A stretch of DNA of 63,822 nucleotides, counting the filler, from Perkinsus olseni (lineage: Eukaryota), in NCBI GenBank assembly GCA_013115125.1. It is 6 parts of 6 records of this genome, joined end to end, with 100 filler letters (N's around TTAATTAATTAA, not from the genome) between each part and the next. Parts side by side here need not be neighbours in the genome. Positions count along the whole stretch, not along the records: positions 32,092 to 42,632 come from JABANN010000869.1; 5 more parts are not named here. The stretch is one strand, 5' to 3'. Below are positions 5,483 to 53,327 of this stretch, in pieces. Position numbers and translations under genes: made by a program. How positions within the stretch are numbered: the stretch's first letter is position 1; every line of letters begins with the position of its first letter. The notes below the pieces were generated by a model that was given only the letters and a program-made list of their open reading frames with translations, was not told the DNA's origin and ran no database searches.

Positions 5483-7074
5483 TCACGACACATCGACCGG
5501 CGAATCTCCGATCTCGTTCTCGTCGAGCTCATTTTCATCTTCATCACTGCTGCCTAACATCTCGGGCTGCTTCTGGTAAACTCCGACCGTGCGGAGCAGA
5601 TCCCCCCACTTCGAGACATCATCACAGACAGGGCACTCTGAAGAAACCGAAAAGGGCTCAGGTTACACAGAGCTGAGGTGAGAATTCACTAGGCACTCCG
5701 CATGCCCTCGAATGAGTGCGAAACTCCGGGTCTGCGATCTTACTGATGAAGTCCGGGATTAGACGGTCTTCGGCATCGAGCGGCGGAGACCCAGTGGAAT
5801 CGCAGCACCCCACAGAAGCGATGCAGGTGATGTGTGACGAGTTTCGACAGGAGAGGCACACCGCTCGCTTCGTTATCCCCGGCGTGAAGGCTTGCATGCA
5901 AATACAGCACGCATGATTACGACTGTCTGCCTCGTCGACAAGTGCCTAAAAGCGGAAGTCCTCGAGAACTACTATCCTCAGATCGCCTGGGGCTAGCGTA
6001 GTCGGCATCGGGTGGATTGGCCTGATTGACGTTGGCAGACTCGTCATGGCGGAACCTCACCTGGGCACTGCCTGCAACATGAGTTCGATGCAGAACTTCA
6101 ATTGGTAGATGCTCTATACGAAAGCAGCTGCCCGAGGCCGCCTCGCCTATGGGACGACCGATCACAGGTGCATCGTATCACGGCTACCACCTCTGGCAGT
6201 TCTGAACTCTGCAACTTTGGCTTCTACGGCGCTAGCTATGCCAGGCTCGAGGACGTTTAGCACGAGCGGCATCCGGGACCATGGAGGAAGATGGAGCATA
6301 CCGATGACCAGCGCTAGATCATCATGGACGTTATTGGTTCGCTGGCGGCCCCGCTTCGTCAGGCCTTTCCCTGAGAGAAGGGGTCGAGTCCCTCGAGAGT
6401 TTGCAGGATCCTTCCGTGATGCACCCGACCGTTAGACACCGGCGCATCACAGGCGCGGTGGATGTGCGGCTCACCTATGCTGGCTAGACCTTCTCGGGTC
6501 AGACGCGACAACCTGGGGTGCTGCCACGTCCACTCAAACTGCAACGCCTGAACGATGCACAAACATGGAATGGCTTTCAACCGGAGCCCAAAGGAGATCT
6601 CGGATCAAGGCCCTGGCATCACTAGCGGTACTCCTGTCGTAGTAAGACAGTCGCAATGGGCAATCGTCGAGAGTGGGAGGGGCTGAGCCGCAATTGTCAC
6701 TCAGAGTCGCTATCGTCTAGTGGTTAGGACGTCACGTTGTGGCCGTGACAACCCCGGTTCAAATCCGGGTAGCGACTTTCATAATCCCACTTGAACTTGA
6801 CTGCTGAATCCGTAACAAACCAGGAGCATCTTCCACGGCCTGTGACGCTTCGTCCTATGGGCTCCTCCAGCATTCAGCTCGCCGTTGTGTTGTCGGATCC
6901 TGATCGAAACAAAGACAGTCGGTCCTGAAGCAGAGTGGCTGATGATCGCCAAGAATCCCACCTTCGGCGAGGGTTCACTGTGAAGCCGATATATCCAACA
7001 TTTGGGGACGCTTCACTTTGTAACAAGTAACAACCATAGAACCCAGAACCGCTAGTGCCCGGGGAGTGTGACAT
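5483..7074 (-). CDS. SLX1: Structure-specific endonuclease SLX1 (GIY-YIG plus C-terminal Cys/His finger), multi-exon
   Basis: Exons read FYGCYLLQS..VGYIGFTVNPRRR / IRQHNGELNAGGAHRTKRHRPWKM / ALQFEWTWQHP / CLSC..HITC..LIP / ECPVCDDVSKWGDLLR. ATG at 7074, TGA at 5483-5485. Internal exon borders are only partly resolved. Confidence 0.9.
6706..6777 (+). tRNA. tRNA-His (anticodon GTG), nested antisense in SLX1 intron 6548-6790
   Basis: Acceptor GTCGCTA/TAGCGAC, anticodon arm TCACG-TTGTGGC-CGTGA, T-arm CCCGG-TTCAAAT-CCGGG. Confidence 0.95.
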
Positions 7075-7938
7075 AGCCACAGAAACTGACTTCGAAACTG
7101 CAGCGTAGTAGTAATAGCAGGATTGGTGATATGAAGAAGACTGTGTATCGGTTCTAAGCCCTGCATTTGCCACTCGAGGTTATAGTGGTGCTCGATGGCG
7201 CAGAACAATCTAGTCAACCAGCAGCATACCACTTCCTGCTGACAACCACGTCAGAAACCCATTCTACGTTGGTTATTTCTGAAAGCTTGAAAGTCAGTAG
7301 AACAAATAACACTCTTTCATTCATTCTGTGAAACGCAGTGTAACCTAGAAAGGTTCGCCATACACATCAGAATACCGCACGAGACTTCACCTCACATACT
7401 CCAACGCAAGAGCTACATTGACTCAAAAAACTGACATGTGGCAACAAAATGAGTTGCGCAATGGTCACGTGAGCAACCTCAGTCACCCAGCATTGGAATA
7501 CAAACTAGACCCTGCTCTTCCATTCGACCACAGTGCTCAAATTTGTGCTCCACACCTCTGTCTCGAGCTGCTTGTAATCAAGCATAGTGGATTTGGAAAC
7601 CTGGCCAGGTACGTTAACTTCGCCCATTTACGCAGTCAATGAGGAGGTCGCATGTGAGCGGTTCTGACTATGGGCTTGCGAGGCCGCCGGCTCCCGTTAT
7701 ATTTCGAGAACAGATGCTGCGCAGAAGAAAGGAACTCACCTCTCAGCGGAGAGTGAACCTCCTCATCACCAACATTCGACCGGAATTTCCTGCGTAAATT
7801 AACAGAAAACTCGACACTCCTCTATCGACGTGAGAATCATATCCGCTTTGTGCCTGCCCTCCACTGGGCTTCCGATCACCTCCGTGCACACGAGGCTTTC
7901 CTCTCTTGCTTGCTTTCCGCGTTAGTCACGGGTCAACC

Positions 7939-9771: not shown

Positions 9772-10615
9772 GATGAGTAACGAGAGAAACAGTAAAGACT
9801 GTGATGACCGAGCATCCAACAGACCTCTCCCCTTCACAACAACTCGACAACTACTCTACGTCACGGTGGATTCCACATTTACTAACCTGAAGCGATGCAG
9901 GATTGACTCCGCCGTGCGCAGGCGTGGTTTACTACGAGAAGATGCTATTACCAAGCGACGGACGCCGTGGAGCCCGCGTCGCCACTCCTTATCGGGAACG
10001 CTGCGCAGTTGAGAAATACGAGAATATTACTACACTGTCGCAGTGTCACTGCGCAACAAATCCTTAGAAAATCGGGTTTTTCTATCATTTTCTCCTTCCA
10101 GAGCACAATTTCGCAACGAGCTCCGAGTATGTGGGCTTAAATGACATACTGGATATACCCTCCAGGGTCGCCCTCCATTTTTAGGGCTAAAGTCTCCGTG
10201 GATCGCGAGAAATCGAAGATTTACTTGATTAGCACGCAACAAATACTTAAAAAATCACGGTCCAGCGCGGGCAGTGAAATCACTCATTTCAGCCACAAAG
10301 TATAATTTAAACTCTGAATCAGCCTGAACAATTTGCGGCAATCGAGAGAGCGCCTAATAACTAGTCTGGTCCAGAAATATCGGACCTTAGCTCGAAGCCG
10401 TGAAACTTCAACGATCCCTGAAGTGGAAAATTTCCCGAAAGGGCGGATTTACAGTGTAAAACGGCGCGGACAGCCCAAACTCGTCATTTTCTTTCACGTA
10501 CTCCTCGACAATTCCGAACTTAGGCCACCCTCGACCCTATCAGCCAATTTGCTGATGTCTCAACAACAACAACAACTCGCTAATGTGATGATATCATCCT
10601 CGACCCCCATATAGG

Positions 10616-10715
10616 NNNNNNNNNNNNNNNNNNNNNNNNNNNNNNNNNNNNNNNNNNNNTTAATTAATTAANNNNNNNNNNNNNNNNNNNNNNNNNNNNN
10701 NNNNNNNNNNNNNNN
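10616..10715. other. Artificial contig linker (N44-TTAATTAATTAA-N44)
   Basis: Identical 100-nt spacer carrying stop codons in all six frames, repeated five times in the window. Confidence 0.98.
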
Positions 10716-11149
10716 AACCAGAGTCCCAGTAATGACAGAGAAATCAAAAAAATACTGTATGTTCTATTATTTTGTAAGGGGGTTTATAATATCGATAATT
10801 AGAATTTGACAAGATGACTTCGCCTGCCCTCATGGCTCCTCGGTGTGCATCGTGGACACTTGAATTATCCAAGCCTAGCTCCCCATAAGTGAAAATCCAA
10901 CGGAGTCGTCCAGGTCGACTGGTTTATGCTCGTATGCCGACGGGTACTCTTCATCGATTATCGCTCGCCTACTCGTTCTACTCCAAGTATCTTCAAAGAT
11001 GATCTGAGGCCCAAATCAGAAGTGTAAGTTTGTCAAGACCTCCACCGTTCACCGGAAGGCATCGGTTCAGTGGAGATCTATTCATTATAAAGATGGACTC
11101 GGAGTTCATTCCGATTCCGCTTTCCGTGGAGGTCAGAACTTCACGATGT

Positions 11150-11760
11150 GCGTAATTGGACGTTTTCAGCAAGACATCGGTCCGCCTACCATCAGTTTCT
11201 TCGTTTTGGCTTTTCAACGTCGTTGGCGGCCGTCAAGGTTATTCAGACCGACCTATCGAACACGTAGGAGTCGGACTTCTGAAGTCTACAAAGTGGCTGA
11301 ACGAATGCGTGTGGCTAGATTCGACCATGCAGGTCCCTCGCTTCGGTCACAGTCTTGCTCTCATGGACAACAGGTATCTGTGATTTCGCAGGCACTGCAA
11401 CAACGGTGACTGGCGTCCGAGGCGGAAATCTTCCATACTCATAGTAACAAGTAGAGCCATGGTCATAAAGACGTCGTCTTTAAGACGAGATACTTACGTC
11501 TGCCGCGTCCACTAAATGCCAGTTGCGTACCCGTGAAGGATGATCGTCTGTTCATAGTCGGTGATGTGTTAAGGCGTTCGAAGTAATAACTCGTCGGACT
11601 GATCGTTATCGGGATTCGTGGGTTCCCCGAGACCAGGCGACTCGGAAGAAACGCAGACGTGGTTCTGGACGTATTGGCGGCACGGATGTCGTCGGTGTCA
11701 CACCAACTGCTTCTACCGCGACAAGAACTTGGCAAGCCTCGGGTCCTTTGGGAATACTCG
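11150..11760 (+). pseudogene. Degenerate gene fragment with Kelch-like motifs; its 3' part has an inverted diverged copy at about 12735-12840
   Basis: VVGGRQG and PRFGHSLALMDNRYL followed by an in-frame stop. RNADVVLDVLAARMSSV..LLLPR matches KNADVVLNVLAAWMSSV..LLLPR on the minus strand. Confidence 0.35.
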
Positions 11761-11844
11761 AAGAGATCGACCTTGATATCTTCCACCCTACTTACTATAA
11801 GTTTGCAGTCCCTGCAAGTGTAGCCGAGCAGTGCCCGGGACTCG

Positions 11845-12370
11845 GTCAAACGAGATTCTCGGTTCTCGCTCGTTCTCGGACCCAAACCGAAACGAGACGA
11901 GAGCTCTCCTTCACGTCCGAGAACGAGACGAGAAATGGCGGGTTATCTCGTTCTCGCATGCAGTGGTATATATTTCGTGTGAATTACTCCACGGAATCTC
12001 GATGTGTCGAGAGTCTAAAAAATCGTCCACATGAGCCATCTTCGGTTATGATTGATAACTGAAGAGGTTTCGTTGCGGTATGGAGCCGTTAGTTGTGGTC
12101 TCGGAGGGGCATGCGAGTTCTAGCAGAGCGAATGTCTCACAATCATTTTGATGGGGTCATGCACCTGCACACTGTCAATGGGTCACTGGGACTCTCTAAC
12201 TGCGCTAATTGATTTCACGAAGGTCTGAATCACAGAATCTACGTCCGTTTGCTCGCCGGAGAAACTGAGACCGAAAACCGAGAACGAGAACGAGAATCAT
12301 GATCGGGGCCGCGAGAAAGGACCGAGCGAGAAAGATAAACTTCCGACAAGAGCCGAACGAGACGAGAATC
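11845..12370. repeat. Two clusters of short ACGAGA/TCTCG motifs (possible transposon subterminal repeats)
   Basis: Dense repeats of (A)ACGAGA and TTCTCG at about 11850-11956 and 12260-12370. Confidence 0.35.
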
Positions 12371-21304: not shown

Positions 21305-21404
21305 NNNNNNNNNNNNNNNNNNNNNNNNNNNNNNNNNNNNNNNNNNNNTTAATTAATTAANNNNNNNNNNNNNNNNNNNNNNNNNNNNNNNNNNNNNNNN
21401 NNNN
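21305..21404. other. Artificial contig linker
   Basis: N44-TTAATTAATTAA-N44. Confidence 0.98.
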
Positions 21405-31991: not shown

Positions 31992-32091
31992 NNNNNNNNN
32001 NNNNNNNNNNNNNNNNNNNNNNNNNNNNNNNNNNNTTAATTAATTAANNNNNNNNNNNNNNNNNNNNNNNNNNNNNNNNNNNNNNNNNNNN
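31992..32091. other. Artificial contig linker
   Basis: N44-TTAATTAATTAA-N44. Confidence 0.98.
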
Positions 32092-32102
32092 GCTCTATGC
32101 CC

Positions 32103-32238
32103 ATGTCAAACGAAATGTTTCGACATTCACAACGACTGCAAACCACGACCCACGTCGTGTCTCCCCATCTTGCGCGCTTGCGATCCTTTGACTAAAAGCG
32201 CACGCCCGTGCGTCACATTCCACATGACATTTGATGTC
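32103..32238. other. Cluster of short hairpins 3' of the RepHel gene (candidate termination signals)
   Basis: CACGAC-CCAC-GTCGTG (32144-32159), CGCACG-CC-CGTGCG (32199-32212), GACAT-TTG-ATGTC (32226-32238) and an imperfect ATGTC..GACAT (32103-32126). Confidence 0.4.
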
Positions 32239-32408: not shown

Positions 32409-32488
32409 CAATGAAGTTTTTCTTTTTATCTCTGTTACTCGCCAACTCAATGAAGTTTTCTTTTTATCTCTGTTACTCGCCAACTCAA
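32409..32488 (+). repeat. Tandem duplication of about 39 bp
   Basis: CAATGAAGTTTT(T)CTTTTTATCTCTGTTACTCGCCAACT occurs twice. Confidence 0.85.
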
Positions 32489-32537
32489 GTCACTTTCCTC
32501 ATCATGACAACATTATTATCATTAACAGTCATGTCTT

Positions 32538-35500
32538 TCATTCTCTCTTTCCTGTAATCACTATTCTTGCATCTTCAATGCCTTCAACCGTTCTTATAAC
32601 AGCCCTTATTGCTTCATCGGTAGAAGTTGTATATAATCTCTGGTTTCCAACACCGTATGCTGCATGTTGGCAACTTCTTTCTATTTGTAGGCGTCTGTTT
32701 CTGCTCATGTTTGGTGGTAAGCGTATATATGCTACCAATGACCACGGGCGTCTATGTATAGGTTTGGTAAAAGCGCTTCCATGACCGGAATTATGCTGCT
32801 GCAATCTGTAGTATATGTTATCACTTTCCCCTATATATGTCACTTCTCCGTGCCTACTTTGTATCAAGTAAATGAAATTGCCGCTTTCCCTAGGCGGCTC
32901 CCGGTCATTCACCCTGATTGGGTAATCCATGCAAGATGTATGCATTGTCACTGCTCTTCCACCATTTCTTTCTCCGCAAAGTTTATCCATTAGCTTTTTT
33001 TCGTAAACGCTCCATTCGTCTGTTTGTCTGCATAGGCTTTGGATCGCACTGACTGCATCTGTCTTATCCCCAATTATATACAGGTCTCGTAGACGGCGCA
33101 CGCGTGATATTATCACATACCATTGTTGGCGTTGCCACAATTTCAAGTGCGATCTCTCTTGGGAGATTGCAGTGCCCAATAATAATGCTGTTTCTCCCAT
33201 CAATCGGTGGGCTGTGGTTGCAAAGTTGTGGCGCAATTCAAATTGCCATCTCCGACTATGACTCCCACGACCAGTTGATATCGTATGACTTTCTCTTCCG
33301 CACAGCGTAACTAGAGGGTAATTCGTGATAGTATTGGGATTGACGTGTCTTATATTTGGTGGTGCAATCCTCACTTTCAATTTCTTCTCTTCTTCATTTA
33401 TATCAACGACAATGCATAGTTGTCCTTGGCACCATCTGCCGTTCCTATCTACTGTCGTCATTCGCATGACGCAGTTTCTCGCTACCCGTAGTGCCCTACT
33501 TTCCGGTAGTGCTCTGTCAAGTGCTCGCTTTTCTGCTTCTGATGCTATTACCCATGAAGTTCCATTATTGTTAGTCGTTTCATCTCGGGCTTCAAAGGTG
33601 TAGCATTCATTACCATTTCGTGCTAGGCGATTCAGATAGCGCTCTATTTGCTCATCTGCCGCTTTACGGCGCCCAAAAACTCTGATACAAGCGTCTGGTA
33701 CATCGTTCCAGTCGTCGGAAAATTGACAGTTTTCTTCTATAATGCTACACACCTCTTCAATATCACTCTCACTCATTCTAGGCTCGCTCATTAGCCGGAG
33801 AACTCGTTGTAAGTTTGCATCACCATCGCTTCGCACCAATTCTCTCATACGAAACACTTGGAAGTTCATTATGAGTGTGGGATCTATTGTAAGTCTGTGT
33901 CCTGTAATTGGTGGAAGTTGTCTGAAATCACCAGAAGCAACTAGTAATATATTTCCATATGGCTCACTCCGGTGCTTCACATGCCGCAAGATGATATCAA
34001 GTATATGGTATTGCTCCGCACTTATCGTGAATAATTCATCAATAATCAAAGCGTCGCATCTCTGTAAGTCCACTATCAGCGACGGTTTTCGACATAGTCG
34101 TTGCAATGCTTTGTAAGCTGCTTGTTCCGCCGTCATCGCGTATTTTCCTTCCTCCACAACCAATTGGAATAAAACGTGTAGATGCCTCCCTCCGACGCTT
34201 ATTGCGCGTTCGGAACTCAGTGCACTTGTCAGTGGGTTTAACCCACGAGCTAACAACTCCAAACATATCTTCTTCAATACGAAGCTCTTTCCGCATCCAG
34301 GAAGTCCTTCGAGTAGTATATGAGGAGTGAAGTGTTGCGCATTTTGTGCTTCCAATAAGCTTATTATTCTCTTTACTTCTCTTAAGATCCTGTTCTGCTC
34401 GTCAATTGATGCAACGCTTTGGCTTGCGGTGCCCAAAATTTCGTTCGCCCATCTAAGGGGACTTCCCACAGTCGCGTTCGCGAAATTTTCCGCTGTCGGG
34501 CACTGTACGTCTCCTGCGGCAGTATCTTGCAACATGCATTTCGCTATACGCAGCCGTCGTTCTCTATTTCTCTCTTCCCAATCTTCAACAGCCAATGTAC
34601 GTAAAATATGTTCTTCTGTAACAGGCACTTCTTCATAGGGAATTCTTCCTTCTATTAATAATCCTCGCAAAATGCGATACGCACCTTTCAAGTTGAGATC
34701 GAACACTCTCGTCCCTCCACTGGGGTTAAATTTCAAGTCGTTCACAGTATAAAATCTGACTATATCCTCGACCGCTGCTTCTCTGTTTTCCGCCCCACCA
34801 TCAATCAAATTTCCTGTTATAAACGCTTCAGTCATATTTCCATTCTCAAACAAGTCTAATTCAGTAACATATCGTCCTTGCGTAAATAAAATGTGACACA
34901 ACAGCGCCATCACACTATTACTCCTTGGCATGCTCATAACCACTATAGCTTTTTTCCTCCGCTTTTCATCATAATCTACATACCGTCTTTTGAATTCTTC
35001 TGAACACTCATCGTCTTGTATTACCCGTAGTATTGTACTATATATTTCATATGCCAACGGTTCAGCAGAGTTTATCGCTTCCATCATCACGTCATCTAGT
35101 GCATCAGCTCTGATTCGCCATTGTTTACCTATTGCATCAATCCAAGGGCACTCTTCCAGATCTTCTTCAACAAGCATTTGGCCATCTCTAACATTCTTCC
35201 AAACCAAACATTCAAAAAATTTCCTCGGCGAATCGATAAATCGCAGTTCTGGAGCACGTAGTTGAAAGAGAGTAAAATTATCCATACCGCACTCAGATGA
35301 CATTCTATCTCTGTATAATATACGCTGATTGTAGGTGAAACGCCTTTCCAATGGTAAATTCAATACATTTTCTCTGTTATCAAACGCATCATATTCTTCC
35401 AAGCGTTGCTCCTTGCAATGCCGAACGACGCCTATTCTCTGCGCTAACGGTTTTGTGGTACACTCCACAAAGTTTTCATCCGTCAGTATATAACCAATTT

Positions 35501-38500
35501 TAAGTAGCCACCAGATGCATTCCGGCAATGATATGAGCTTTATCTCTTCTCTCCTTTTCCGACTATCCAACATACTCTCCCGCATTCTCTTGCAACCAAG
35601 CTTTATGTTTCTTATTCGATCCACCGTTGCATGTAATCCATTTTCTTTCCCTCCTGCGCTTATACCAACTGTTGCCCGTTCTTCTTTGCCACAGAGATAT
35701 TTGCACAAATATTTACAATTGAAAAAGGTATCTGTTATTTGTATATTGCTCGACGAACGGCATACAAAAAATAATAACCCATTTGTCGGCGATATCTTTT
35801 CGTCCGGGTCTGCCGGATATCCATGCCGACCAGCTCGCAACTCTTCCCCAACTTCTATCTCGCCAGTTCGCTCATTCAAATGTGCTAAGCCTAAACGCTG
35901 CAATATAATTAAGGCCGTTTCATCATGTGGTGCCACACTTTCTTCAAAATAATGTTCATACTCAACTTTATATCTCGGCACTCGACACTCGTATACCGTC
36001 TCCACCACTCCATTGTCTTTTCTTATTCTTCTGCGTTTCGTGCATCGATACCCTCCTTTTTTACAATCGTGCGCCTGTATGGTTCGAAAGTCATTCATAT
36101 ACGATTCGCAATCCTCTAAATCATCGGCTAGGCCTGATTGTATAAGCTTCTTGTATTCTCTTGGGCATACATGCCATCCACAGCCAAGATCATGAGCTCT
36201 GGACGTCGCACAAATTATTTTTTGTCGTATCTGCAACAAGCGAGCACACCTCGAAACTTCACACTCAACGACATTCATCAACAACACACCATTTTACTTA
36301 CTTCTTCCACTTTCACGCCACTCTTCATTGTCAACAGCAAGTGTAGATGGGGCAAATTCGCAGTACTGTCTTGAAATTCAAAGCGCGCAAAAGTCGACTG
36401 CACGTCTCCGAATATCTTCTCTTTCGACATCTTTAAATACCTCACCAAGTACTCTGCTGTTCTAGCCCACCCCAATGTAAGATCAACCACAGTTCCTTCT
36501 TGTACAGCGGCAGCTTCGTCTGGAGGTAAATGTTCGACAACTTCTTCAATCGCTTCACGTAAGGGAGCTATGCCGAAGTGTTTCTTCTGGTTACAGGTCA
36601 ACGTGATGAATATTTTGACATTTTCAGGGTTGGATAACATACTACTAGCCAGCCTTTTTACTTGCTTTCGGCTATCAATTTCTTCAAAAGGCAATACAGG
36701 TTCCTCAGCCTCTACACCGGACTTTCCTTCACTTAGCGCATAGTATCCTCGTTTCATGATTAACCGGCTATCAGCATGGCGAAGCTTTTTGTTGAACATC
36801 AAAGCGAAAGCGTAATTGATGAAACTCGCAGATCGTCCCGCCTGCAGAGCGCCGCTTAGAATTCTCGTTCGTAATTGATCTTCTTCATTTGCTAGCGTTC
36901 TGTAAATCTGCGGCCCATTTACACACCAGATGTTAGTCGGTAATGCTCCGTGCACTGCGCCGTCTTTTGCTCCCTTGAAGAATAAACCAGGGAATAGATG
37001 AGCTTCTGCGACCGCCGCGGCGGTATTGTAGGGTATTCCACCTGAGAAAACGAAACACCCACCATTTTCAACACTTTCAGTTTGTACTTTCACCTGTGCC
37101 AATAAAAGCTTGCAGAAACCTTTGATGAGCAGTTGTGAGCGTCAGAGGTCTGCCTCTTCTCTCTAGACATTTATGTAACCCGTTTACCAAAACATGCCCC
37201 TTTATTCCCTGCCATCCGCTGACTGTAATTTCTTTCTCATTTCCCGACCCCCTCCAGACGCCTTCTGCACTTCTCGCATTATCATGCATGTCGTTTCCAC
37301 TTGCCGCATCATATGAATCATCAGTTCCGCTGCTTCTCCTGTTACTTCTGACATCATCTCTCCCTCTGATTTTTACGTTCAAACACCCTCTCTCTAAATG
37401 TTCTTTATAATGTTTGCGACATACCCCCATGTTACACGTTCTTCGCATGCACGAAAAATACATAGCGAAATTGCAATTCTCAAAGCAGCATTTGCGCCCA
37501 GAACCGTGGGGCTCTCGAACCAGATATGTCCCACAAATTTCGCATTCAAAAACCGCCTGACCACCGATGTGAGCAAGCATTTCTTTTTTAACATCACATT
37601 CCGCACTTCCTCTCACATATATCAACATATTCCAGCCTCCTAACAATTTATTTCGTTCCTGGATCCATTTTTCTTTCTCTGCTACTTTATACTTCCTATT
37701 CAATCCCCAAGTTGCTTCACCAGCTCTTATGAAACATTTATCTGCTGCCATAACGATCCGCAACTCCCAGTTCCGCCCATAGTTGTCTTCAATCTCTTCC
37801 TCCAGTCTACAAAGACGTCGCCGCCTTCTTCGATCCCGAGTCCATAGAATTGTTATCTCATCATTTCTTCCAATATTTTCCCTCACTTCATTCCATGCCT
37901 CTTCGCCCCGATCGCGCATCAATTGTGCATGAATCTTTTCCACCCAACCCAGGAATTTACAGCACATCTCAACGGGGCTCTGTATATCACTCGCTGCCTC
38001 CACCTCTAACTGTTCTTCAACAAAGGCATCAATATTCTGAATGCGGTTCAAGTACAGCATGGCCGCAGCGTTAACTTTTCTTCTCAAACTTCCCAGCTCT
38101 GAATCAAGCTTACACAGTACAACAGATCTCCAGTTATTCTGACTTTCGCACTTTTCGCTCAGTAAACGCCACACCTGACATAACACTTGTGGTTTCCAAA
38201 TACGAAATTTTCCGCTTATATTACCTTAGTTTCGTTCAATAATACCACGGCTAAACTCCAACCACACTCATATGATTTCCACTTATCAAACAGTGGTAAC
38301 AGAGGATATTCGTTCCACCTATTTAAGCTTCGTGTTCTCACTATTTCACCAACTATTCGACATTCTATCATCCGATCATTCTCAACTTCGTCATCATCCT
38401 CACGGGTAAACCACGCAGTACATACTTGTACCTTTTTATATGCTTTTCCATTCACAGTTATTACCAGTTGGTCTGCAGGCACCCACGAACTACTTGCAGT

Positions 38501-39836
38501 AACTTTTTTAATGACATCTTTAGAGTATTCTCTTCTTCTATTTAGCTCAGATACCACACACTCTGGGATTTCCCCTTCAATATACCGCTGATTCGTGAAT
38601 GCTTTTATATCAGGTCTCTCATTCATTATCACATTCTCTTGTTTCGATAGATATTCAGATACAACATCCCAATCGCATTCGCCGTTGAGTCCGAAAGTAG
38701 AAACCCCATTATAGTCCGCACACGCCTTCATCAATTTATACGTGTACCCTGAATAGGTCGCTCGTCCACATTTAGCAATATTTGTCCGCAACCGCAACGG
38801 GCCCAAAACCTCTTCATCAATCGGCGGGAACAAACCCGTTACAGGGTTCTCGCACGAATAGACCATGTCCCCTTCAACCCCTTTGCCATGTCTCGAACAC
38901 ATCAAGAAGCACAATCCATCATCTTCATCAATGCGACAACTAGGAGCTACAATCCACTGCAAGAACTCTTTAGGAATCAACCAATCACCTCGTCGTCTAC
39001 TGAACAGTTTTACGAAATTAGCCTTGAAGCCATTAAACTCCGCATCATGTTCTTGTATCAAAGAAGAGTATGGAACTCCAACCGCTTTTTCGATAAATTC
39101 CCAACACCCATATGGGCATAAAATCGTTCGCACTGGCTCTTTATTCAAGCATCTTTTCAATTTCCCTAATTCATAGCTTTCCAAATCTTGCATGAAATCG
39201 TCATACCTCTTAGATACGTTGACAACCCTCGAACATCCGGATCGTCTTGGCTCCAGAAAGCTCCACCAATGGCGTACGTCATCAGGCAACACATCCCATA
39301 GTCCATGACGTATTTTGCTGTTCTTCGTCAACTCAGTGTATATAACGGATGGCCACGCATACCGCCAACCGCCGCCATCTCTCAAATACTTCACACATTC
39401 TTTACAAACATTGACACTTTCACGCGTTCTCAGATCATTACGAGATACCGCACCATATTTCCGGCTTTTCATACCTTCCGTTATCGCTTCTCCCACTCCA
39501 AGACCATCTCCCACACTCCAACGCTTACAATTATCACATTGTTCTGCGGTTGTAACCGCATCTTCTTCTTCACCCACTCTCGCTTCCGCCCGCTCTTCTA
39601 TTTGCGGTAAAACTTCAACCTGTTACACATGAATACCACAAGAAAGTTTGTTCCGTTCAACAAACAAAATGCCCACAACCAAAATTTGTTACAATCCCAC
39701 TCACTTCTTCCTCTTCCGCTCCCAACATGTTTGATGTTGCCCTAGCAGTACACCTACTGCACGATAACGAGTTACTGAATACACCACATTCGATGCATCT
39801 CTGCTGTTCTATTCTCCTCCTTCTACGCGGTGGCAT
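32538..39836 (-). CDS. RepHel-GIY-YIG transposase, 5 exons (39836-39705, 39619-38225, 38174-37094, 37041-36302, 36230-32538), 2346 aa
   Basis: Introns 39620-39704 (GTGAGT..CAG), 38175-38224 (GTAATA..CAG), 37042-37093 (GTGAAA..CAG) and 36231-36301 (GTAAGT..CAG) restore one frame of 7041 nt. Rep motifs IFITLTCN, RFEFQ..LPHLHLLL, KYLCKY. Helicase motifs GLPGCGKS, IIDE, GDFRQLPP, QFELRHNFATTAH, YVIISRV. GIY-YIG motifs FIYLIQ..TYIGES..RLQQHNSG..RPW..IE. Confidence 0.88.
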
Positions 39837-40355
39837 GCTAAAGTCAAAATGTCTAACTCATCACAAACATCATCCCATTACCGTACAGGGAAGCGTTCGG
39901 TGCGAAGCGCCGACTCAATGAAGAGCTTCCCGCCTTCAACAACAAAATTCAATCACTCTATGTTCCCTTACTCTCTCAATGTTCCTCGTTTAATTCTACC
40001 CATGTCAACAACGCAATCCATCTTGAATTACATCTCCACAAATTCTGCTCCACAATGGTCCGACAAATGCCATATATCATTCACACAAGACCATGCACGA
40101 CCAGGCGCGAAAAACAGGGCCACAAATCACCCTTCCTTAAGCACGATTTGTCATCGGCTTTATCAAAAACTCTGGCTACAACAGTAATGCTCATATAAGG
40201 TTACTACTGTGGAGCATCTTTTGAGCAGCTACTTCCTCCGACCGTCGAATTATTATTTTTACTCACTTTTGCATTCTTCTTTTTTCCTTTTCTACAATTC
40301 CCTGTGTTACTACTTCTGCGATTCTCAACACCTTGCTTTCTTCTACCTGCACAAC

Positions 40356-41950
40356 TTATGACATATGCTTCATACAATCAACAATTTCACCTCCGTTATC
40401 TTCTCCGACACATCCATTTACTCCTATCTCTTCCTCCAAAGCTTCGTTCTCGCCTCCGCTTTCTTCGTCTGAACCTCCTTCAGTAGTATCTCTTTCCCCA
40501 TCATTCTCCGTGTTTTGAATAGGTAATTGAACTCCTACATCGGGAACGAACGAAAGTAAGAACAAAGTAGTATTATGAATCCGCCTACTTTTCCCAGCTC
40601 TCCAGGAGAGTTTCTTTTTCTTAAATCGCTTCATTTTCAACTCCTCTATCTCTTCGCTCAATTCTTCCATCCTCTCTGGCGCAATGCTTACCACATGTAT
40701 CTTTTGTATTTCTTTATACATGTTGATGTCTCCATCTCCGGCACTCTCTTCTGTTATAACCCCTCCTTTCGCCCATCCGTGGACTACCCAGCCTAAATTA
40801 CATTCAAAGCAGATTCAGTTAAACAATACTTTGTAATGGTCACAAAGTAGTACCTCCTCTCTTGTTCACGAACTTCCCTACTTTACGCGCTGCCTCGCGA
40901 AGCGCGAAAACATCAGGAGGATCCGCCTCCCTCCATATAGATTTACGTGTCAGCAGCTTAGTCACAGCTAGACCTTTCACCAAGGCACATTTCTCCCGTT
41001 CACACACACCAGGAAATGCCTTGCAATGAACCGTACTACATGCCACATATCTGAGCGAAAAGAACCCTAAGCTCAACTTGTTCGCTTCTGCTACTTCATT
41101 ACCCAGCTTTCCTTCCACGATACAAACAAACGCAACCTTTCCCTTGCGAACTCGGCCCACACGAGCTGTTACACAGCTGCCCACCGCAGGACAGTTCAAA
41201 AGTGGCCAGTGTTAAACCCAAACGCACGCCACGAAGAGTGAAAGCGTAGAATGACCCACTTTGAGGTATCTGATAATTGCAATCCAGACATGAAATCCTG
41301 TTAAAGACTTTACTTTCACTATCCCCACAGAAGGAGGATCTGGAACTTCCGCAGCCACCAACTGGACAGACGTAGTAATTATCGGAGTTGCTGAGTTCGC
41401 AAGGAACTCATCATGTCGGAATACCGGTTCCACAATTGCAATCCCGCTACCGATTTGAACCTATTCACAGTTCACTATTTGGGACCTCTAAAACACAGCA
41501 GCACAAGAAAAAAAATGCAATACTAATGCAAATATTGATCGCATTATTTCACTACAATTATTAACAACAACACTCACCTCGCATGCATGGGGTAACACTT
41601 TCTTGGACTCTCCCTTCTGCAATAAAATCATACAACACTTTCCACTACCGTACTCCCTAATCGACATCTTCTCCACACGTACAATATACGAGTCACCTGC
41701 CCTATTAGCAATGCCCTATCGTAAACTACTTCTCCTTTGCCTTTCTTCGAATTATTTAACCCATGTGGACGAGATACTAATAAAGATTTGTTCTTCTTTA
41801 TCGAAAGGAGTCTGCAACAGACACAACTGCCTGATGAAATAGGTCCCTCCGAACTACATCCCCATGATGTAACATCGTTCAGTCGGCGCGCTGCAACCTC
41901 CAACTGGGCCACTAAAGTCACTATCCACCACGTCGTCTAAATCGATTTGG
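40356..41950 (-). CDS. Second, spliced gene of the element, unknown function (ends approximate)
   Basis: Co-oriented ORFs 41628-41921, 41212-41433, 40840-41199 and 40356-40721. Intron 40793-40853 (GTAC..TAG) joins FVNKRG|GWVVHGWAKGGVI in frame. Confidence 0.55.
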
Positions 41951-42632
41951 AAGAACTTTTCTTGCAAAAGAGCAACCGACTTTTCAGTGCCTAGCCCCGT
42001 TAACATTTAGCAAAACTTAAACCTACAAAACAACCCAACCTTACAACTACTCAGTCCCTATTCCAATTCCAAGATCTACCGACCGCTGCGATCAAGTCAA
42101 CAACTATCTCGCTCGTCTATAAAAATGTCGCCCGCCACATTTCTAGCATTTTGCATTATTTTACCGCTTCAACAAGGCTAAAGCAGCAGTTTGTAAGAAT
42201 TGGATCCTATAATGCAACTATGCAATGAAAATCGTCGAGCCGAGAGCCTCGCCCGAGGCGGGAACCATCTTTCGACTGCCGTGATTCAATTTCCCCTGCG
42301 GTTTGACAAGCCCGGCTCCCCGTTTTTACCGGAAGTCCTACACCGCCGGCTACCTTCAGGTATACGGGCATTCCGATCTTATAAGTGTTTCCGTCATCGC
42401 ATCATCGCGCAGAGTGGCGCAATTTCCTGCCACGCATGCTGTGCATACTTCGGCATGCAATTTTGCTCCTCCAGCGGACTTATTTAATTTGTCCTATTTT
42501 GCCCTTTGTAGACTCAGGATAAAAAAGGTCAGAGGTCATGTATGGACCCTCCCCACAACCTCTTGATTGCTCGTCCGTCGCTTCGCTGCAGCTCTGCCCC
42601 CTTGGCCGCTTGCGTATATGAGTGCAACGACC

Positions 42633-42732
42633 NNNNNNNNNNNNNNNNNNNNNNNNNNNNNNNNNNNNNNNNNNNNTTAATTAATTAANNNNNNNNNNNN
42701 NNNNNNNNNNNNNNNNNNNNNNNNNNNNNNNN
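42633..42732. other. Artificial contig linker
   Basis: N44-TTAATTAATTAA-N44. Confidence 0.98.
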
Positions 42733-53227: not shown

Positions 53228-53327
53228 NNNNNNNNNNNNNNNNNNNNNNNNNNNNNNNNNNNNNNNNNNNNTTAATTAATTAANNNNNNNNNNNNNNNNN
53301 NNNNNNNNNNNNNNNNNNNNNNNNNNN
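53228..53327. other. Artificial contig linker
   Basis: N44-TTAATTAATTAA-N44. Confidence 0.98.

Follow-up and report, generated by a model that had tools for sequence, protein, structure and literature searches.

A probable two-gene Helitron-like element with a C-terminal GIY-YIG nuclease in Perkinsus olseni

A Rep-helicase-GIY-YIG gene and its companion

The window analysed here, a stretch of 63,822 nucleotides of Perkinsus olseni DNA (GenBank assembly GCA_013115125.1), is broken by N44-TTAATTAATTAA-N44 linkers at 10616-10715, 21305-21404, 31992-32091, 42633-42732 and 53228-53327. Since these linkers recur every ~10.6 kb, the window is made up of separate contigs strung together, each ~10.5 kb long with lengths that fall slightly along the window, and gene neighbourhood across a linker is artificial. 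We focus on the contig at 32092-42632 (10,541 bp), which has linkers on both sides and carries a large gene for a Rep-helicase-GIY-YIG protein and a smaller gene, open reading frame 2 (ORF2). We read this contig, with a probability of roughly 0.7, as an intact, expressed, two-gene Helitron-like rolling-circle element that belongs to a large, diverged clade bearing a GIY-YIG nuclease.

The large gene runs on the minus strand from an ATG at 39836 to a stop codon at 32540-32538. Its five exons are separated by four introns of 85, 50, 52 and 71 nt, all with canonical GT..AG borders, and the coding sequence of 7041 nt specifies 2346 amino acids (aa) plus the stop. The region holds four stop-free minus-strand frames (38216-39622, 37077-38225, 36278-37141 and 32538-36293) that overlap by a few bases and alternate in frame. 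An earlier note on this DNA had described one spliced frame of 2346 aa; our model reproduces it at the same length, and every motif that the note named lies on the translated gene where the note had placed it.

All exons are on the minus strand. Exon 1 (39705-39836) supplies the ATG, the first pair of Cys residues and a run of basic residues (PPRRRRR); exon 2 (38225-39619) encodes a conserved N-terminal Cys-rich region (aa ~60-430) without a Pfam family; and exon 3 (37094-38174) has a variable part and a conserved Cys/His cluster (aa ~735-790), and the Rep region starts in it. The Rep core lies in exon 4 (36302-37041), with motif 1, FITLTCN, at 36610-36590 and the HUH motif, LPHLHLLL, at 36355-36332. 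Exon 5 (32538-36230) contains the Rep two-tyrosine motif KYLCKYLCGK (35714-35685), a Pif1-type helicase (~34346-32994, with the Walker A motif GLPGCGKS at 34307-34284), the C-terminal GIY-YIG domain (32640-32876) and the stop codon. The helicase and the GIY-YIG domain share a single, uninterrupted open frame of 1251 aa, so that their co-translation is independent of any splicing assumption. A 38-nt tandem repeat in 2.1 copies (32409-32488) follows closely on the stop codon, within the 3' untranslated region.

Pfam matches to PIF1 (E = 2.8e-16), GIY-YIG (E = 1.7e-09) and Helitron_like_N (E = 6.2e-07), together with the motifs in this single gene model, bear out the earlier claim of an intact Rep-helicase-GIY-YIG fusion. 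Across 19 full-length relatives (described below), H1549 and H1551 of the HUH motif and Y1720 are invariant and Y1724 is nearly so. Judged by sequence, the protein has the HUH Rep, with HxH and two catalytic tyrosines, that marks Helitron-like elements; a Pif1-family superfamily 1B (SF1B) helicase, which marks them too, lies C-terminal to the Rep in the same protein. The named Atlas clusters nearest to the Rep region of one relative were all PF14214. The helicase matched PIF1 in the PDB (E = 2.3e-11), and an AlphaFold2 (AF2) model of the helicase plus GIY-YIG region had a mean predicted local distance difference test score (pLDDT) of 86 and a predicted template modelling score (pTM) of 0.82. 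In a Foldseek search with this model, the best fold matches were Pif1 helicases (E = 4e-27), and the Helraiser transposase ranked 24th.

Two conserved regions rich in Cys and His, neither with a Pfam family, lie in the N-terminal ~830 aa and are encoded at 38225-39619 and ~37550-37750. Their family consensus sequences are CxNCxR...LCxxCxxYL and GGQ...C..H...C....C.....WRCP...C....C..H, and they are presumably zinc-binding DNA-recognition modules.

The residues expected of a GIY-YIG nuclease appear in order at 32873-32673 on the minus strand (IYLIQS, TYIGES, YRLQQHNSG, RRPWS and LQIERS), with both Tyr, the Arg, the His-Asn, the Pro-Trp and the Glu present. The structure-specific endonuclease SLX1 and bacterial YhbQ (UPF0213) proteins have the signature Y..YIG..T....R..QHN....RPW....FE..W in common with this domain. 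Its best solved matches were SLX1 chains, whether the search used the single sequence (E = 6e-04) or family profiles (E = 1e-12 and 1.3e-13), followed by UPF0213/YhbQ proteins, and the Glu of LQIERS aligned with the FE glutamate of SLX1 chains 7cq2 and 7wme. These results, with all signature residues in place, support the assignment to the SLX1/YhbQ type made in the earlier note. In contrast to SLX1, which has a C-terminal RING/PHD-type zinc domain, the domain here is fused to a transposase and followed by only ~45 residues that include no Cys cluster. Without a RING-like tail it is not an SLX1 orthologue.

A host SLX1-like gene lies in the first contig of the window (~5658-7179, minus strand), with GIY-YIG pieces in three frames, introns between them and a Cys-rich, RING-like part. 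The gene that the earlier note had compared with the element as the host SLX1, at 5483-7074, is real, with a GIY-YIG domain and a Cys-rich tail; it lies on another contig, however, and has the motifs alone in common with the GIY-YIG domain of the element.

The second gene, ORF2 (41667-40356), is also on the minus strand, upstream of the transposase gene, and encodes 327 aa in six exons (41667-41578, 41460-41314, 41269-41103, 41050-40854, 40792-40589 and 40534-40356). Its five GT..AG introns were all seen as joints in contigs of two public sequencing runs, X7 and X8. The product has a Cys4 cluster and an acidic tail, no Pfam family and no PDB match by profile, and its AF2 model (pLDDT 47) was unusable; an OB-fold of the RPA kind would be a guess.

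Homologues of ORF2 accompany distant transposases. A search for related loci with relative P0152 gave 10 loci, among which L001-L003 represent one locus and L004-L006 another. In the metagenome locus L003, an ORF2 homologue (11089-12231) lies 2.8 kb downstream of a transposase gene whose product is 29% identical to ours (tblastn E = 9.5e-11; a profile of ten homologues matched ORF2 with E = 4.6e-24). In L004, a homologue (10532-11239) lies ~2.1 kb downstream of a transposase that is 36% identical to that of L003. Both homologues are on the same strand as their transposase. Five other ORFs of L003 were compared as well, and none was shared with L004 or the window. ORF2 homologues beside transposases as distant as those of L003 and L004 make ORF2 a conserved partner, and we regard it as an accessory protein that travels with such transposases. 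A tandem repeat with ~93-nt spacing was also seen in L001 (1587-1778), just upstream of an intronless, 2704-aa relative.

Transcripts and flanks of the element

Evidence for expression came from assembled contigs of public runs (X1, X7, X8 and X9), in which parts of the gene left uncovered by X7 and X8 are uninformative. The stretch is present in public runs of one coded organism label, including DNA runs of four studies. In the DNA run X1 it appears as a single unspliced contig of 10,044 nt (32459-42500). In contrast, an X7 contig covering 39703-39854 skips intron 1 (39620-39704) exactly, and contigs of both X7 and X8 skip intron 2 (38175-38224) exactly, which indicates that the gene is transcribed and spliced. 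X9, which is under a second coded organism label, has a loose, spliced contig end that passes over intron 2 into exon 3. Although X7, X8 and X9 are on record without an RNA label, so that their RNA nature is inferred from the exact intron-skipping joints, the GT..AG joints on the minus strand in all three point to spliced RNA in three studies. A further X8 contig (32459-33588) joins the GIY-YIG domain to the end of the helicase on one side and to the stop codon and 3' untranslated region on the other; like the shared 1251-aa frame, it upholds the claim that the GIY-YIG part is co-translated.

Introns 3 and 4 are supported by homology: alignments to relatives P0002 and P0006 are unbroken from aa ~580-690 to aa ~2286, and homology to full-length relatives crosses the junctions at residues 869/870 and 1116/1117 without a break. 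Within X8, intron 3 stands unspliced in one contig while another skips intron 2, which means that the intron was retained or that the library contained DNA. Runs X9-X19, all under the second organism label, contain short contigs over parts of the gene, and the seven aligned from X9 were all at least 99% identical to it. The spliced junction and this identity suggest the same transcript under a second label, whose runs may represent the same species under another name or mixed samples.

In base composition the contig differs from its companions in the window, with a GC content of 0.37-0.45 vs. mostly 0.47-0.62 in the other five, which fits a transposon. Its GC skew is strongly negative, the coding (minus) strand being strongly enriched in G. 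An Rfam search of the contig gave no match, and no other copy of the gene was found within the whole window.

Sequence of high copy number borders the gene pair on both sides. In X1, word depth over the gene body is flat at 73 within the single contig, so the genome may hold a single copy. On the 3' side, depth rises to ~2760-2860 over 32092-32223, a sequence with short GC-rich hairpins from which other copies diverge inward at 32223. On the 5' side (42232-42632) it is ~3000 over 42246-42545, and other copies diverge inward at 42232. Both flanks are at similar depth, ~40x the body, which fits a transposon; from ~42560 outward there follows a far more abundant repeat, with a summed depth of ~35,000 (~480x the body). 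Short GC-rich hairpins were seen near both flank boundaries. On either side the contig breaks off within high-copy sequence, short of the true termini. Helitron-like elements are expected to have defined termini (5'-TC/CTRR-3' with a hairpin, or short terminal inverted repeats), an AT or TT target and no target-site duplication; on this contig we can claim neither a terminal inverted repeat nor a 5'-TC/CTRR-3' end.

We considered a simple insertion into one repeat, which is not supported: as we read the alignments, neither loose end, at 32223 or at 42232, runs on into the flank on the other side. This failed empty-site test and the similar flank depths fit ~40 shorter elements with common ends; these could be non-autonomous partners that share the ends of the element, or the flanks could be unrelated repeats. 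In repeat searches, the flanks proved dissimilar to each other and no terminal inverted repeat came to light.

A large family of GIY-YIG-bearing relatives

We searched 1.84 billion cluster representatives exhaustively with HMMER, using 1200 aa of exon 5 as the query, and found 4496 matching proteins at E ≤ 0.001, 753 at E ≤ 1e-10 and 272 at E ≤ 1e-30. The best 150 of the 4496 are mostly 2200-2800 aa long and 25-32% identical to the query, and align with it to position ~1140-1160, thus through the GIY-YIG domain. A word-indexed protein search was nearly blind to the family (1 and 3 matches), and a phage collection yielded distant helicases only. The nearest Atlas clusters are assigned to Eukaryota, most commonly Bacillariophyta, with a phylum given for four members only.

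We then took a census of C-termini in the 154 relatives retrieved. A profile of the GIY-YIG family block matched 128 of them, and Pfam added P0147 (E = 1.9e-05), giving 129/154; the last 141 aa of the window protein, used alone, matched 104 of 151 relatives. Among the 26 proteins missed by the profile, 13 do not include the C-terminal end of the helicase and 11 stop at most 58 residues past it, and these 24 are truncated predictions. The other two are P0147 and P0043, the latter being the sole relative with a long tail of another kind. The domain is therefore found in 129 of the 130 relatives with sufficient C-terminus, in agreement with the earlier suggestion of a lineage and not a one-off.

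Catalytic positions are well kept in these 129 sequences: the GIY Tyr in 118, the YIG Tyr in 106, Gly in 114, Arg in 104, His in 108, Asn in 124, Pro in 123 and Glu in 101. Members that are degenerate at catalytic positions also occur, for example P0112, P0118 and P0126. A C-terminal module that is so constant and catalytically conserved across the clade argues that the fusion is ancient and selected, and is no recent gene capture.

In the 19 full-length relatives, Pfam detected PIF1 in 19, GIY-YIG in 16 and Helitron_like_N in 11. An OTU cysteine-protease domain was present in the same protein in three of the 19 (relatives of alignment A2, P0002-P0132). Neither Exo_endo_phos nor DUF6570 was detected in any of the 19 (E ≤ 0.01 for DUF6570). 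No APE-type endonuclease was found by Pfam in the window protein or in these relatives. DUF6570 gave no match at E ≤ 1 in window exons 2 and 3, where a divergent form may fall below detection.

Affiliation, mechanism and significance

Several results count against an intact, expressed element of a large GIY-YIG clade and temper the probability that we assign to it. The Helitron_like_N match is weak and partial, covering profile positions 96-191 of 191 with 30.2 bits at a cut-off of 28.9, and the family profile, which matches the helicase of Helraiser (E = 5.6e-24), does not reach the Helraiser Rep domain at E ≤ 0.001. The Rep is therefore Helitron-like yet remote from that of the sole solved HLE1 enzyme. 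No splice joint for intron 3 or 4 was seen in the aligned run contigs, and intron 3 is retained in one X8 contig (36867-37530). The HMMER query contained the GIY-YIG domain, which favours carriers of that domain; the domain contributes just a few tens of bits to the relatives' scores of 216-535 bits. ORF2 is upstream of the transposase here and downstream of it in L003 and L004. Finally, neither termini, a target site nor a second copy was found in the one 10,541-bp contig and run X1, in which no other contig is at least 85% identical to the body.

The element resembles canonical Helitrons (HLE1; Helraiser, PDB 7lcc) in that a two-tyrosine HUH Rep is followed by a Pif1-type helicase, and differs from them by its long, conserved, Cys-rich N-terminus, its GIY-YIG tail and the companion ORF2. 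With Helentrons (HLE2) it shares an HUH Rep, a Pif1-like helicase and an extra nuclease C-terminal to the helicase in one polypeptide. The nuclease of Helentrons, however, is APE (Exo_endo_phos), whereas that of the element is an SLX1/YhbQ-type GIY-YIG. In the available text of Thomas et al. (2014; PMC4067079), Helentrons are defined by the APE domain. By this criterion, and on predicted domains, the lineage is not a Helentron.

In the accessible full-text literature, from which subscription papers and Repbase reports fell outside the search, we found one relevant statement on a GIY-YIG Helitron. HELIANO (2024; PMC11417382), in the part open to us, describes GIY-YIG as ‘captured and transposed’ in the HLE2 family HelenSM92 of the moss Sphagnum magellanicum. 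HelenSM92, which we could compare by this one-sentence description only, is like our element in having GIY-YIG besides Rep-helicase (RepHel), and is presented as one moss family, classed as HLE2, with a captured domain. To call the lineage undescribed, as the earlier note was inclined to do, is thus too strong, given this passage of HELIANO. What is new is a large and almost undescribed group of Rep-helicase-GIY-YIG elements; one moss Helitron family with GIY-YIG was known already.

A reading that we put a little below even odds is that the clade is a branch inside HLE2 (Helentron/Helitron2) with GIY-YIG in place of APE, like HelenSM92, in which case only the subgroup label would be new. The OTU protease has long been associated with Helentrons, and its presence in 3/19 relatives is a likeness to them, as is the position of the nuclease C-terminal to the helicase, where Helentrons have APE. 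The sole published GIY-YIG-bearing family is also classed as HLE2 by HELIANO (PMC11417382, as far as its text is available), which gives that family short terminal inverted repeats and TT targets. On the other side, the same source names DUF6570, N-terminal to Rep, as the marker of HLE2, and this marker was detected in 0/19 full-length relatives and not in window exons 2-3; moreover, HELIANO finds OTU in HLE1 too.

A bolder proposal, which we offer tentatively and give a fair but less than even chance, is that the Rep-helicase-GIY-YIG elements with ORF2 constitute a further major rolling-circle lineage of eukaryotes alongside HLE1, HLE2 and the Paramecium clade, one that is widespread among protists, diatoms for example, and that Helitron surveys have missed. 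The accessible text of HELIANO (PMC11417382) recognises only HLE1 and HLE2, and GIY-YIG is missing among the 19 domains named, out of 20 ‘stably included’, in its main text. A 2026 paper adds the Paramecium clade and, in its available part, leaves GIY-YIG unmentioned (PMC13085455).

We think it unlikely that the gene, though descended from such a transposon, has been domesticated as an immobile host gene in single copy. An intact frame that is transcribed and spliced would suit such a gene, as would the single flat-depth X1 contig with no paralogue at or above 85% identity and no other copy in the window. However, the composition of the contig is unlike that of the other contigs, high-copy repeats stand on both flanks, and a linked accessory gene has been kept with distant relatives. 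Identity to most relatives is only 25-32%, and they are spread over many metagenome and run assemblies, which is the picture given by many old lineages of elements, not by orthologues. Run X20, under the same organism label, holds next to none of the words of the stretch, which is a weak argument in the same direction.

It is more doubtful still that the gene pair belongs to a larger virus-like or episomal replicon instead of a transposon. The window contig is cut at both ends, and in L001/L003 the transposase-like gene lies in a region of ~17.7 kb with six further ORFs without a Pfam family. Yet the ORF2-like gene alone is common to the window and the loci L003 and L004; Pfam scans of the proteins of the element and of the L003 ORFs detected no family of capsids, polymerases or integrases; and four studies that share an organism label have DNA runs with the stretch.

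Gene capture is well known in Helitrons, and the passage of HELIANO cited above speaks of capture in Sphagnum, but the notion that the GIY-YIG domain was captured recently from host SLX1, or that two genes were joined artefactually, is close to refuted by the one stop-free 1251-aa frame, by the domain's presence in 129/130 relatives with a complete C-terminus at ~25-30% overall identity, and by a host SLX1 that shares motifs only and has a Cys-rich C-terminal part missing from the element.

If the contig is a Helitron-like element, as we favour, homology to Helraiser-type transposases suggests how it would move. The Rep would nick one strand at the element ends and stay attached through its tyrosine, the helicase would unwind 5'->3', and the displaced strand would be circularised and then integrated. 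HUH nucleases cut single-stranded DNA only, and we therefore propose that the GIY-YIG domain supplies a cut on duplex or branched DNA that is beyond the reach of Rep. Most likely, this would be a nick in the target or the complementary strand that opens the target and primes second-strand synthesis, which would parallel the task that has been suggested for APE in Helentrons. Less probably, the domain would trim a flap or junction left by strand displacement.

A comparable arrangement occurs in Penelope-like retroelements, in which a reverse transcriptase is fused to a C-terminal GIY-YIG nuclease that presumably cuts the target. These elements thus also have a C-terminal GIY-YIG nickase on a mobile-element enzyme, and differ in being retroelements. 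If the clade is indeed a further major rolling-circle lineage, rolling-circle DNA transposons would have recruited APE and GIY-YIG, the same two types of nickase as long interspersed nuclear elements (LINEs) and Penelope-like retroelements, which would point to a general need for duplex nicking that HUH enzymes lack.

The available text of Heringer and Kuhn (2022; PMC8788227) covers the APE domain of Helentrons and leaves the function of captured nucleases undetermined, and the GIY-YIG domain of this clade parallels that unexplained APE domain. A clade with 272 representatives at E ≤ 1e-30 and one sentence in the searched literature is probably missed or mislabelled in protist annotation, and the conserved ORF2 is a further unknown component of its elements. 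How Helitrons open a duplex target and make the second strand is unsettled, since HUH cutting is confined to single-stranded DNA. An SLX1-like nuclease that the clade has constantly kept on its transposase offers a natural, testable handle on this missing step.

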